Of a stretch of DNA of 64,000 nt, positions 14,773-53,032 are shown piece by piece. Made by a program: the position numbers and the translations under genes. Under the pieces are notes generated by a model, which was not told where the DNA came from, ran no database searches, and saw nothing but the letters and a program-made list of their open reading frames with translations. Within the stretch, counting starts at the first letter, position 1, and each line of letters starts with the position of its first letter. Origin of the DNA: Escherichia phage vB_Eco_OMNI12; the sequence record OL362041.1; one strand, 5' to 3'.

Positions 14773-15453
14773 TTATTTTAATGTTACGAAAGAAGAGTTG
14801 CGTGTTTCACGAATTAGAACTGATCCGTCACGGTTAATGTAATAAATTAAGCTAAATAAAGTTTGGTGTGCTGACGCATGTTCAAAACTAGTTGGGTGAG
14901 ATTTCCAATCAGGAGTTTCAGCAATCCATTGATAAATCCACCAAGGAACAGTACAGAATCCTGGATTTTTTCCAATCAACTGAAGATTCGGGCTAAAGTT
15001 TTCCGGAAGAGTAAATACAGACTGCTTTTCAGATTCAATAATCTCAGCTACAGCCTGTTCAAATTTTTCTTCAACAAATGGAGTATCTTCAATCAAAACA
15101 TCGGTATTTTCAGGAATTTTATCTGTTTCTACTACTTCAATTTTAATGTCAGATTTAACCGGAGAATCAATCAAAAGTGCTGCTTCTGGATTGACTTCTT
15201 CATCGTCATATTTTAACCCCTCTGCAGCATCAGCAGCATCAATTAAGTCTTTAATAGATAACCCATCAGTCTCCGGCATAGGTTCACTAGCGAGCTTCTG
15301 GAGAGCTTCTTCAATATCATTAACGATATTATCAAAAGATTTATTCTTTTTGACCTTTATACCAAACTGTTCAGCATATTCAGCTAATTTAGCTTTAGCT
15401 TCTTTATTATCATCAAGAGCCTTCAGCTCTGCAATATAATCTTTATCTATCAT
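14773..15453 (-). CDS. inh: inhibitor of prohead protease
   Basis: 226 aa acidic protein immediately downstream of hoc, T4 gene order. Confidence 0.6.
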   Translation of the reverse strand: MIDKDYIAELKALDDNKEAKAKLAEYAEQFGIKVKKNKSFDNIVNDIEEALQKLASEPMPETDGLSIKDLIDAADAAEGLKYDDEEVNPEAALLIDSPVKSDIKIEVVETDKIPENTDVLIEDTPFVEEKFEQAVAEIIESEKQSVFTLPENFSPNLQLIGKNPGFCTVPWWIYQWIAETPDWKSHPTSFEHASAHQTLFSLIYYINRDGSVLIRETRNSSFVTLK

Positions 15454-15466
15454 AATATTTCCTCAG

Positions 15467-15474
15467 TATAAATA
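15467..15474 (+). promoter_or_regulatory. late promoter TATAAATA upstream of uvsW
   Basis: Exact TATAAATA 30 nt before uvsW ATG. Confidence 0.6.
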
Positions 15475-15503
15475 TAGATATATTTATTACATGGTATTTA
15501 GAC

Positions 15504-17015
15504 ATGACTGACATTAAAGTACATTTTTATGATTTTAGTCACGTGAGAATTGATTGCGAAGAAAGTACATTTCATGAACTCCGTGATTTCTTTAGCTTTG
15601 AAGCTGATGGGTATCGTTTTAATCCGAAGTACAAATATGGCCACTGGGATGGACGAATTCGTCTTTTAGATTATAATCGCCTTCTTCCATTCGGTTTAGT
15701 CGGGCAAATTAAAAAGTTCTGCGATAACTTTGGCTATAAAGCCTGGATTGACCCACAGATTAACGAAAAAGAAGAATTATCAAGAAAAGATTTTGATGAA
15801 TGGCTTTCTAAATTAGAAATCTATTCAGGAAATAAAAGAATTGAACCGCATTGGTATCAAAAAGATGCAGTGTTCGAAGGATTAGTTAATCGTCGTAGAA
15901 TTCTTAATCTTCCAACATCCGCTGGTAAATCGTTAATTCAAGCTTTGCTTGCGCGATATTATTTGGAAAATTATGAAGGTAAAATTCTTATCATTGTTCC
16001 AACAACTGCTCTAACAACTCAGATGGCTGATGACTTCGTTGACTATCGTTTATTCAGTCATGCAATGATAAAGAAAATTGGTGGCGGAGCATCAAAAGAT
16101 GATAAATATAAAAATGATGCACCGGTCGTTGTTGGTACATGGCAAACTGTAGTAAAACAACCGAAAGAATGGTTCTCACAGTTTGGAATGATGATGAATG
16201 ATGAATGCCATCTTGCTACAGGAAAAAGTATTTCATCTATCATATCAGGTTTAAATAACTGCATGTTCAAATTTGGTCTATCTGGTTCATTACGTGATGG
16301 CAAAGCCAATATCATGCAGTATGTTGGAATGTTTGGTGAAATATTTAAGCCAGTAACGACTTCTAAATTAATGGAAGATGGACAAGTAACTGAGTTAAAA
16401 ATTAATAGTATTTTTCTTCGCTATCCCGATGAGTTCACTACTAAATTAAAGGGAAAAACTTACCAAGAAGAAATAAAAATTATTACTGGGCTTAGTAAAA
16501 GAAATAAATGGATCGCTAAATTAGCTATTAAGCTTGCACAAAAAGATGAAAACGCTTTTGTCATGTTTAAACACGTATCGCACGGTAAAGCTATTTTCGA
16601 TTTAATTAAAAATGAATACGATAAAGTTTATTACGTATCAGGGGAAGTTGATACCGAAACCCGCAATATAATGAAAACCTTAGCTGAAAACGGTAAAGGA
16701 ATAATTATAGTAGCTAGTTATGGTGTATTTTCTACTGGTATTTCAGTTAAAAATCTGCATCACGTTGTTTTAGCACACGGTGTTAAATCTAAAATTATTG
16801 TATTGCAAACAATAGGTCGCGTATTACGTAAACATGGTTCTAAAACAATCGCAACAGTCTGGGACCTCATAGATGACTGTGGTGTCAAGCCAAAATCTGC
16901 TAATACTAAAAAGAAATATGTTCACTTGAACTATCTTTTAAAACACGGCATTGATCGTATTCAGCGCTACGCAGATGAAAAATTTAATTACGTAATGAAA
17001 ACAGTTAATTTATAA
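15504..17015 (+). CDS. uvsW: UvsW DNA/RNA helicase (SF2)
   Basis: 503 aa; Walker A LPTSAGKS and DExH MMNDECH motifs; late promoter TATAAATA at 15467. Confidence 0.9.
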   Translation: MTDIKVHFYDFSHVRIDCEESTFHELRDFFSFEADGYRFNPKYKYGHWDGRIRLLDYNRLLPFGLVGQIKKFCDNFGYKAWIDPQINEKEELSRKDFDEWLSKLEIYSGNKRIEPHWYQKDAVFEGLVNRRRILNLPTSAGKSLIQALLARYYLENYEGKILIIVPTTALTTQMADDFVDYRLFSHAMIKKIGGGASKDDKYKNDAPVVVGTWQTVVKQPKEWFSQFGMMMNDECHLATGKSISSIISGLNNCMFKFGLSGSLRDGKANIMQYVGMFGEIFKPVTTSKLMEDGQVTELKINSIFLRYPDEFTTKLKGKTYQEEIKIITGLSKRNKWIAKLAIKLAQKDENAFVMFKHVSHGKAIFDLIKNEYDKVYYVSGEVDTETRNIMKTLAENGKGIIIVASYGVFSTGISVKNLHHVVLAHGVKSKIIVLQTIGRVLRKHGSKTIATVWDLIDDCGVKPKSANTKKKYVHLNYLLKHGIDRIQRYADEKFNYVMKTVNL

Positions 17016-17494: not shown

Positions 17495-17522
17495 GATTGT
17501 CTCCTCTGAATTATATATCTAT

Positions 17523-18226: not shown

Positions 18227-18625
18227 TTATACTCTATTACTGGAAGCCAGTTGTAGTTTTATCTGCTCAATATCATCAGGGTTATCGATGACTGAAAAGC
18301 GTATTTCTACTATCAAAGTATAATCATCATAAACCGGTATTACATTAACTGCTAATTTATCAATACGTGGCTCATAGTTTCTTACTGCGCTTTCGATATT
18401 ACGCTCAACCGTGTCAGCAGTAAGAGGAGTCATATTCTCAAAAAGTTGGTCAGATAAATCGCATCCAAATTCAGGGTCAAACGGTCTTGAACCTTTTCTT
18501 GTTGTAATAATTCCTAAAAGACTATTTTTAATTGACCTTAATCCAAGTGATCTTGAAACGTCTTTGTTCCAATCCATTTTCATCTCTGGGTCAATATCAG
18601 AATAAAGCTTATTAATATTTGCCAT
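18227..18625 (-). CDS. 25: baseplate wedge protein gp25
   Basis: 132 aa as T4 gp25; start overlaps stop of gene 26. Confidence 0.85.
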   Translation of the reverse strand: MANINKLYSDIDPEMKMDWNKDVSRSLGLRSIKNSLLGIITTRKGSRPFDPEFGCDLSDQLFENMTPLTADTVERNIESAVRNYEPRIDKLAVNVIPVYDDYTLIVEIRFSVIDNPDDIEQIKLQLASSNRV

Positions 18626-19251
18626 TACAATAGCTCAAAGAATTCTTTGAGTCCTCTTATTACATGAGCGTGAGTTTTTCCACACTCTGGACATTTAATT
18701 GGAACAGCCAAATAAACAGTAGGCTTTAAAAGCATATCTTTTATAGCTACAATATCTGACTCTGTGATGATAGAATATAAATCTTCTAGTTCCTTTTCAT
18801 TTAAGTCTTCAACTGGAATGCTTTCCCCGTTAGCATGAATCGTTTCTATACATGATACTATCATGTGGGCTATATTTTTATCATCAAAAATTTTAGGGTA
18901 TCGGAATTTAATTTTAATGTCACCCAGTGTATACCAAAGGTCTTCTGGTGCATCTATTTGTGTATGTAATAGATTTATATGGGTTGGTATTTCAGTTCCG
19001 CAGGTGCACTTCCAGGAGTTTTCGTGATTAACTTCTCCAAGAGAATGCGCCCATAAATGAATCAACAATAGTTCTGATTCTTGGCGATTTAAATCTTTTG
19101 CATTTGTGCAGTCTTTGATTAGCTTTTTAACAATTACTTCTACAGAACCATTATTTTTGGCAGTAATAAGTTCTAGATATTCTTTAAGAGTAAATGCGCG
19201 ACAGTTGATTATTTTAGAACCAACTCTCACATCAAATTTGTATTCATACAT
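18625..19251 (-). CDS. 26: baseplate hub protein gp26
   Basis: 208 aa; divergent from gene 51 with shared late promoter region. Confidence 0.8.
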
Positions 19252-19272
19252 ATTTAGCTCCTTTATTTATCA

Positions 19273-19284
19273 TATTTATAAATA
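19273..19284. promoter_or_regulatory. overlapping divergent late promoters for genes 26 (minus) and 51 (plus)
   Basis: TATTTATAAATA contains TATAAATA on both strands. Confidence 0.6.
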
Positions 19285-19301
19285 GAATAAAAGGAGCATC
19301 T

Positions 19302-20051
19302 ATGGCAAACATTATTCGTTGTAAATTACCAGATGGTGTTCATCGTTTTAAACCATTTACGGTAGAAGATTATCGAGATTTTTTGTTAGTTCGAAACGAT
19401 ATAGAACATCGGTCACCACAAGAACAAAAAGAAATAATTACTGATTTAATTGATGATTATTTTGGAGACTATCCGAAGACTTGGCAACCATTTATATTTT
19501 TGCAGGTATTTGTAGGTTCAATAGGTAAAACTAAAGTACCAGTCACATTTGTATGTCCAAAATGTAAAAAAGAAAAGACAGTTCCATTTGAAATATATCA
19601 AAAAGAATTAAAGGAACCTATTTTTGATGTAGCTAATGTTAAAATTAAATTAAATTTTCCTTCTGAGTTTTATGAAAATAAAGCAAAGATGATTACTGAA
19701 AATATTCATTCTGTTCAAGTAGATGAAATGTGGTATGATTGGAAGGAAATTAGTGAATCGAGTCAAATAGAACTTGTTGACGCCATCGAGATAGAAACAT
19801 TAGAAAAAATTCTCGATGCAATGAATCCTATTAATTTAACATTGCACATGTCGTGTTGTGATAAGTACATTAAAAAATACACTGATATAGTAGATGTGTT
19901 TAAGCTATTAGTTAATCCAGATGAGATATTTACTTTTTATCAAATTAATCACACGCTTGTAAAAAGTAATTATAGCTTAAATTCAATAATGAAAATGATT
20001 CCTGCCGAGCGCGGATTCGTATTAAAACTGATTGAGAAGGATAAACAATAA
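19302..20051 (+). CDS. 51: baseplate hub assembly protein gp51
   Basis: 249 aa; late promoter TATAAATA 19277..19284. Confidence 0.8.
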
Positions 20052-51796: not shown

Positions 51797-52450
51797 TTAA
51801 TACTTGCAAGATTTCACAGTTTCAATGAAAACATTTTTAGCTTTCTGTGAATCAATATTTAAAATTTTTCTATAAGCCTTTAACTTTATAGAATAATTAT
51901 TCCAGACTAAATTATCAGTCTGTTCATCATGTTTATCAATTATATTTAAAAACGAATCAAGCAAGATAAACGTCTCAAACGAAATTATGTTCGATTGCAG
52001 AAGTTTAAAAATATAACTTGACTGAACCTTTGGATTATATTCAAAGATTTCTTTAAAAGCAGAAACTTCAACTTTTTTACTAAAATAATAAATGTTGCGA
52101 ATATCTTCTTCAAACTTAAATTTAATTTGCTTTAAGCGTCCGATATATTCACGATAAAACACAAGTGCATCAGCGTCAGAGATGTCACCAATCCAAGCAT
52201 CTTGGTTAGCAACCAAATTACTTATAAAAATTAAAGCAAGTTCCTTTAATTTATATTTTTCTGATAACTTCTGGAAAAAATACTTATCCCTTCGCCTTTG
52301 ATAAGCGGCATCAGACACCCGCATGCACCAATTATACTTAATAACATCATACTTTCCATTCATATGTTGTTTTATCATTAAGTATAATTTATAAACTGAT
52401 TTACCATCAATGTATCTTTCACCACCAGCAGGCATGCGGAGTTTAATCAT
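51797..52450 (-). CDS. 59: helicase loader gp59
   Basis: 217 aa as T4 gp59; position upstream of gene 32. Confidence 0.8.
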   Translation of the reverse strand: MIKLRMPAGGERYIDGKSVYKLYLMIKQHMNGKYDVIKYNWCMRVSDAAYQRRRDKYFFQKLSEKYKLKELALIFISNLVANQDAWIGDISDADALVFYREYIGRLKQIKFKFEEDIRNIYYFSKKVEVSAFKEIFEYNPKVQSSYIFKLLQSNIISFETFILLDSFLNIIDKHDEQTDNLVWNNYSIKLKAYRKILNIDSQKAKNVFIETVKSCKY

Positions 52451-52785
52451 AGCAGAAAATCTAATGTATTAGTTTTTTCACAACGAACAACAGAAGGACG
52501 TAAAAGATTTTCGTCAATGGCTTCTGACTGAATTTTTTCAATTATACCCGAAGGAATAAATTTAGCAAATTGAGTTTCAGGAATAGAGTTTTCTTCCAAG
52601 AATGCTGTCGTAGCTTCAAGATAACTCATTCCAAATTCTTCTACCATTTTTTCAATAATAAATCCATTTTCTTGACGATCAAGAAGCTTTGCTATTTCAT
52701 CCTTTTCTTTCTTGATTGAAAGTTCTTTTTCTGAAAGACCGGTCTCATCGACCGGACGAATGTCATTTAGAGAAAACTGTGTCAT
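52447..52785 (-). CDS. 33: late transcription co-activator gp33
   Basis: ORF 52447..52794; internal Met gives 112 aa. Confidence 0.7.
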   Translation of the reverse strand: MTQFSLNDIRPVDETGLSEKELSIKKEKDEIAKLLDRQENGFIIEKMVEEFGMSYLEATTAFLEENSIPETQFAKFIPSGIIEKIQSEAIDENLLRPSVVRCEKTNTLDFLL

Positions 52786-53032
52786 AAAGTTCAACTACCT
52801 CTTCAGTTTCAGCTTCAAACACATCACGGTTATCTTTATGATACAAAGCTAATAGACGATTAAACATCTTACCATCAACGCCAAGTTCATCTTTAGCACG
52901 AATTCGAATATCTTTAATCAGTTCATTATAACCGGAAATTTTCAGTTTATGATCAGATGCTTCTTTAATAAATTTAGCCAAGTCTTCGCCATGGATAGCT
53001 TCATCAAATTCAACCATTTCTTTTTTAGCCAT
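52763..53032 (-). CDS. dsbA: dsDNA-binding protein DsbA
   Basis: 89 aa as T4 DsbA; position between rnh and 33. Confidence 0.7.
   Translation of the reverse strand: MAKKEMVEFDEAIHGEDLAKFIKEASDHKLKISGYNELIKDIRIRAKDELGVDGKMFNRLLALYHKDNRDVFEAETEEVVELYDTVFSK

Follow-up and report, generated by a model that had tools for sequence, protein, structure and literature searches.

A perfect 12-bp palindrome between the baseplate genes 26 and 51, TATTTATAAATA at positions 19273-19284 of the window (the whole 64-kb stretch of DNA analysed), is very probably an overlapping, back-to-back pair of T4-type late promoters. The sequence is identical to its own reverse complement, carries as such no strand, and is composed of two late-promoter boxes TATAAATA overlapping by 4 bp, the central TATA (19277-19280) being common to both. 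The box on the plus strand (19277-19284), 17 bp before the ATG of gene 51, would serve gene 51 together with the genes after it (27 onwards), and the box on the minus strand (19280-19273), 21 bp before the ATG of gene 26, would serve gene 26 and the genes downstream in the opposite direction (25 onwards). The whole element is located in the 50-bp gap between gene 26 (minus strand, ATG at 19251) and gene 51 (plus strand, ATG at 19302). The first-pass annotation had described a palindrome-like 12-bp core with a late box on both strands; the palindrome turned out to be exact and TATAAATA to be perfect on either strand.

The 12-mer TATTTATAAATA is present in a single copy in the window versus 0.02 copies expected from dinucleotide-preserving shuffles, two out of one hundred of which contained it, and TATAAATA is present in 18 copies versus 8.5 +/- 3.2 expected. 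Enumeration by inspection indicates that two perfect boxes placed back to back have just two possible overlaps, one of 4 bp and one of 2 bp, the 4 bp found here being the tightest arrangement. In an AT-rich genome, where chance alone would give about eight copies of TATAAATA per window, the site could be taken for a chance AT-rich palindrome devoid of function. Such a reading is hardly credible in view of the low expectation for the 12-mer itself, of its position within the 50 bp separating two late genes and of its conservation in phages with as little as about 27% gp26 identity, and it is effectively refuted when the shuffles are considered together with the flank conservation reported below.

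Flanking genes and relationship to T4

Gene 26 (18625-19251, minus strand) is an ORF of 208 aa for a baseplate hub protein or chaperone, and gene 51 (19302-20051, plus strand) an ORF of 249 aa for a baseplate hub assembly protein. Family searches assigned both flanking proteins to PF12322 and to the PHROG category 'baseplate hub', and identified the next proteins outward as gp25 and gp27. The window belongs to a Tequatrovirus; the region is 99.9% identical to that of Escherichia phage vB_EcoM_G4498 and matches about 500 Tequatrovirus records at 95% identity or more, and its spacer equals the T4 26-51 spacer at every base. The gene order of the T4 reference, with uvsY, 25 and 26 pointing one way and 51 and 27 the opposite way, is the same as in the window. 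The initial assignment of the site to the upstream region of two baseplate genes, gene 26 on the minus strand and gene 51 on the plus strand, is borne out by the annotation of T4, whose spacer is identical, and by the PF12322 and PHROG matches.

With the Pfam profile PF12322 (T4_baseplate) gp26 scored 215.6 bits and gp51 185.8 bits (cut-off 24.5), both alignments starting at residue 1 and at profile position 1. Compared directly, gp26 and gp51 share 19% identity (E = 2e-4), with residue 18 placed opposite residue 17. Judged by these alignments, genes 26 and 51 are distant paralogs standing head to head around the palindrome. The locus as a whole is mirror-symmetric, with paralog, ribosome-binding site and promoter followed by promoter, ribosome-binding site and paralog, and with the palindrome on the axis.

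Late-promoter signals at the site and across the window

The T4 late promoter consists of the 8-bp box TATAAATA at -13 to -6 (PMC1524935), with an A/T-rich stretch downstream of the box and without a -35 element (PMC2988020). At the palindrome the segment from -5 to +1 reads GAATAA on the plus strand and TGATAA on the minus strand, five of the six positions being A/T in each, and on both strands the start codon of a late gene follows the box at the short distance given above. In 22 diverse palindrome-bearing spacers the positions just outside the 12-mer carry 0.1-0.45 bits as far as the ribosome-binding-site complements, without any conserved -35-like element; this comparison was anchored on the palindrome, so that its 2-bit core is circular and the informative observations are the sharp fall at the edges and the 32 out of 38 spacers described in the next section. 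As far as sequence can tell, every property of a T4 late promoter is present on the plus as well as on the minus strand.

The context of the boxes was scored against crude ORF calls covering 94.6% of the window. Fifteen of the 18 TATAAATA boxes lie outside the called ORFs and eleven are found 14-34 bp upstream of a same-strand ATG, a range which includes the two boxes of the palindrome (17 and 21 bp). A twelfth box, at 17520 on the minus strand, probably serves the small uvsY.-2 ORF. Scans for sigma-70-type promoters and for terminators around the site did not exceed shuffle level (9 sigma-70-like matches versus 9.4 expected); no sigma-70-like promoter was called across the spacer, which gave no evidence for an early promoter.

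The late-transcription coactivator is encoded in the window by gene 33 (52447-52794, minus strand; PF16805, E = 5.6e-27), as is dsbA. The nearest relatives of the window are complete Tequatroviruses, and genes 55 and 45 would presumably lie outside the 64 kb analysed. Gene 33 and dsbA (together 52447-53032, minus strand) overlap by 32 nt, which fits the translational coupling noted for them in the literature. The predicted C-terminus of gp33 reads ...TLDFLL and may be its hydrophobic clamp-binding tail.

A second divergent late-gene spacer of 50 bp is present at 15454-15503, between an inh-like ORF (14773-15453, minus strand) and an uvsW-like ORF (15504-17015, plus strand). It contains TATAAATA at 15467-15474 on the plus strand and the common variant AATAAATA at 15481-15488 on the minus strand, in crossed order, and the two predicted transcripts would overlap at the 5' end, by about 6 nt. 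Between inh and uvsW T4 has the homing-endonuclease gene segE, which is absent in the window.

Conservation and variant layouts

Thirteen annotated phages were sampled across the range of gp26 identity, and a further 80 IMG/VR loci were collected via the conserved neighbour gp25, the alignment of gp26 being too divergent for this use. The exact 12-mer was found in ten of the thirteen annotated phages, namely T4, CC31 (Karamvirus), members of Mosigvirus, Marfavirus, Winklervirus, Dhakavirus, Lazarusvirus and Tegunavirus, and one Klebsiella and one Enterobacter phage without genus assignment. The IMG/VR loci yielded 38 distinct 51-26 spacers, of which 32 contain the 12-mer, the most distant of these being in phages whose gp26 is about 27% identical to that of the window. 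Positions 19273-19276 are unique to the gene 26 box and positions 19281-19284 to the gene 51 box. All twelve bases being invariant, and the outer four on each side being specific to one box, both promoters are evidently under selection; conservation of twelve bases between drifting flanks argues that both directions are used.

Three lineages do without the exact palindrome. In Krischvirus (RB49-like phages, four loci) a 1-bp insertion gives TATTTATAAAATA, in which the gene 51 box alone stays perfect. The Aeromonas Tulanevirus-like phages (four loci) carry a 10-bp palindrome, TATTTAAATA, which is 2 bp shorter, and Pseudomonas phage PspYZU05 (two loci) carries two separate perfect boxes in crossed order, each nearer the other gene. 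The overlap is therefore strongly retained, but is not essential. Such a distribution suits a layout from which escape is difficult, one box being lost with any insertion or deletion, better than a layout needing maintenance for its own sake.

These data bear on the possibility that a single promoter is at work, that the other box merely follows from TATAAATA being nearly symmetric, and that the gene behind it is served by another start or by read-through. The TATA inside TATAAATA does favour self-overlap, GenBank record M77695 lists alternative boxes for gene 26, and the Krischvirus sequence preserves a perfect box for gene 51 only. We regard a single promoter as improbable nonetheless, since the box-specific outer four bases are invariant on both sides in 32 of the 38 spacers where their neighbours drift, since both boxes are at typical distance from a ribosome-binding site and an ATG, and since no other perfect box is present upstream of either gene 26 or gene 51 within the spacer.

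A pair of promoters is also not the only way to account for a dyad. The palindrome could be kept chiefly as the site of a dimeric DNA-binding protein regulating both genes, for which the phage DsbA is a candidate: the perfect 12-bp dyad stands within a 48-bp imperfect palindrome, dsbA is present in the window, and DsbA has been reported to bind A/T-rich sites, including sites overlapping two late promoters, with micromolar affinity (PMC2988020). The dsbA gene is non-essential (PMC2988020), and DsbA binding at this site is conjecture. What makes this explanation very improbable is that the two boxes account for every conserved position, that conservation ends exactly at the box edges, and that the variant lineages keep late-box-like sequences and lose the dyad spacing.

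In KP15-like phages (two loci; positions 1197-2884) genes 51, 26 and 25 form a tandem array with a single orientation and a stop/start overlap ATGA. Their locus lacks the palindrome as well as any nearby TATAAATA, and a CTAAATA inside gene 51 is its only late-like motif. An origin of the 26/51 locus by inverted duplication is conceivable; the KP15-like phages have the 51/26 tandem, and the cyanophage S-SM2 locus examined has a single full-length PF12322 gene.

In Enterobacter phage CC31 (GU323318; positions 1046-1195) gene 51 seems to have been annotated with its start about 33 codons too far downstream. In the resulting 148-bp 'spacer' a CAT and the complement of a ribosome-binding site stand as far from the palindrome as they usually do, and translation from the upstream start matches the N-terminus of T4 gp51.

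Previous descriptions of the site in T4

Overlapping T4 late promoters directing divergent transcription of the base plate gene cluster were reportedly described by Scarlato, Storlazzi, Gargano and Cascino in 1989, in Virology, and the RNA 5' ends of the pair are said to have been reported in the same work. A literature search of limited coverage retrieved neither genome-wide T4 start-site maps nor mentions of a bidirectional late promoter for gp26 and gp51.

In GenBank record M77695 (T4 genes 51/26/25/uvsY) protein 51 is given a TATA_box at 768-774, corresponding to 19284-19278 of the window, and protein 26 a TATA_box that overlaps with it, at 772-779, corresponding to 19280-19273. The divergent pair is therefore already on record, known and ordinary. 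In the T4 reference records NC_000866 and AF158101 no promoter features are annotated in the 26-51 region. M77695 contains two further TATA boxes for gene 26, the variant boxes GATAAATA (M77695 781-788; window 19271-19264, minus strand) and TATGAATA (window 19248-19241, minus strand), the latter overlapping codons 2-4. Neither of them is conserved outside Tequatrovirus, GATAAATA being absent from the other sampled phages, and they may give rise to extra gene 26 starts. The same record, following an older gene model, gives gene 26 no more than a short internal CDS.

The proposal from the first reading of the DNA, that overlapping divergent late promoters at one site would serve both genes, is thus supported by the promoter features on each strand, by the boxes of M77695 and by conservation. 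What is added here to the T4 record is modest, and consists of the conservation across genera, the three variant layouts and the head-to-head paralogy of genes 26 and 51.

Predicted starts, leaders and symmetry of the spacer

According to the -13 to -6 rule (PMC1524935), transcription of gene 51 is predicted to start at an A at 19290 on the plus strand, with the leader AAAGGAGCAUCU followed by AUG, and transcription of gene 26 at an A at 19267 on the minus strand, with the leader AAUAAAGGAGCUAAAU followed by AUG. The distance between the two predicted starts is 23 bp, and the predicted leaders have a length of 12 nt for gene 51 and 16 nt for gene 26. Each box of the palindrome is followed by an AAAGGAG ribosome-binding site. 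The ribosome-binding region AAAGGAGC of gene 51 is located at 19290-19297 on the plus strand (GGAG at 19293-19296) and the one of gene 26, with the same sequence, at 19264-19257 on the minus strand (GGAG at 19261-19258; RBS at 791-794 of M77695), the two being respectively the right and the left arm of a perfect 8-bp inverted repeat, GCTCCTTT/AAAGGAGC. This is the outer repeat of the 48-bp imperfect palindrome (19255-19302, no strand), which covers nearly the whole spacer with arms that are 71% complementary and a centre at 19278/19279.

RNAs reading through the spacer on either strand are predicted to form hairpins in which the ribosome-binding site is base-paired (-14.3 and -13.0 kcal/mol; z = -2.6 and -3.2), and the predicted late transcripts, which are without the 5' arm, are predicted to be unstructured. 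The read-through hairpins resemble the arrangement of T4 gene e and I-TevI, where only the transcripts from the late promoter are translated (PMC3014915). Covariation of the ribosome-binding-site arms was looked for across phages, and the complementarity of 4-11 bp followed no consistent compensatory pattern. The hairpin may be a mere consequence of two Shine-Dalgarno sequences facing each other.

Proposed mechanism

Host RNA polymerase carrying the phage late sigma gp55 would use TATAAATA as a -10-like element, reading it on the non-template strand, and the shared TATA would make the same 12 bp readable in either orientation. Engaged in one orientation, the polymerase would start at about 19290 and transcribe gene 51 and the genes downstream, and engaged in the other it would start at about 19267 and transcribe gene 26 and the genes downstream. 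Cryo-EM structures show non-template-strand bases flipped and recognised by gp55, with the DNA unwound from -12 to +2 (PMC7892883); the melted regions predicted for the two directions are 19278-19291 and 19266-19279, so that the two bubbles would abut.

In the activated complex gp33 is near -39 and -35, the gp45 clamp adds 13 bp to the upstream footprint, and the nicked strand sets the polarity of activation (PMC2988020). A complex firing toward gene 51 would cover the gene 26 box, start site, ribosome-binding site and start codon, and the reverse would hold for a complex firing toward gene 26. With the opposite promoter covered in this way, no more than one polymerase would be expected to occupy the palindrome at any moment. 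Which way it fires would probably be decided by how the incoming gp45 clamp is oriented, and this in turn depends on the strand that the clamp was loaded on. The sequence, position, statistics, conservation and prior annotation of the pair are directly supported, and it is the starts, the mutual exclusion and the choice by clamp orientation that we infer. Geiduschek and Kassavetis remark that not all of the 50 listed T4 late sites have been proven active in vivo (PMC2988020).

It could further be thought that the exact 4-bp overlap is selected for its own sake, as a strand-choice switch working through exclusive occupancy and clamp orientation, and is not a frozen accident. We hold this to be rather unlikely; if true, the switch would couple both baseplate operons to replication and balance them. 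A related idea, offered as speculation, is that the read-through hairpins sequester the ribosome-binding site, so that translation would be confined to transcripts that have their start at the palindrome.

Comparison with known systems

As a discovery the site matters little, the box being the textbook late-promoter box and the pair being already annotated for T4. Its use is rather in annotation, where the 12-bp marker locates the 51/26 junction together with both start codons in most T4-like phages, and exposes the apparently mis-called gene 51 start in phage CC31.

The closest known system is the 26/51 promoter pair of T4 itself, which has the same spacer, the same overlapping TATA boxes and the same flanking genes; there is no difference within the element, and the window is simply a different Tequatrovirus isolate. 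Single T4 late promoters such as P23, which depend on gp55, gp33 and gp45, share with the palindrome the 8-bp TATAAATA, the A/T-rich stretch between box and start, the lack of a conserved upstream element and the short leader before a late gene. P23 is unidirectional, whereas the two promoters of the palindrome share 4 bp, face apart and should compete for one site. The crossed pairs, that is the inh/uvsW spacer of the window (15467-15488) and the 51-26 spacer of PspYZU05, likewise have late boxes on opposite strands within a 50-bp divergent spacer, but their boxes are separate and each is nearer the other gene, and the predicted transcripts consequently overlap at their 5' ends instead of starting back to back.

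In bacteria, symmetry-based bidirectional promoters have been described in which a pseudo-symmetrical -10 element engages the polymerase either way and one binding excludes the other (Warman et al. 2026, PMC12825309), the common spacings between divergent starts being 18, 10 and 23 bp (PMC12825309). Two characteristics of this class (Warman et al. 2021, 2026), overlapping -10-type elements and the spacing of the starts, are found at the palindrome in the 4-bp overlap and in the predicted distance of 23 bp. The bacterial promoters are read by the host sigma-70 through a 6-bp -10 element, whereas the palindrome pair would be read not by a housekeeping sigma but by the phage sigma gp55 through an 8-bp box, with a sliding-clamp activator whose orientation on the DNA would add a directional input. 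By analogy, the palindrome resembles a phage-sigma version of the symmetry-based bidirectional promoter. It offers a clean natural substrate for asking whether the orientation of a sliding clamp picks the direction at a symmetric promoter, in parallel to the work on the bidirectional promoters of bacteria.
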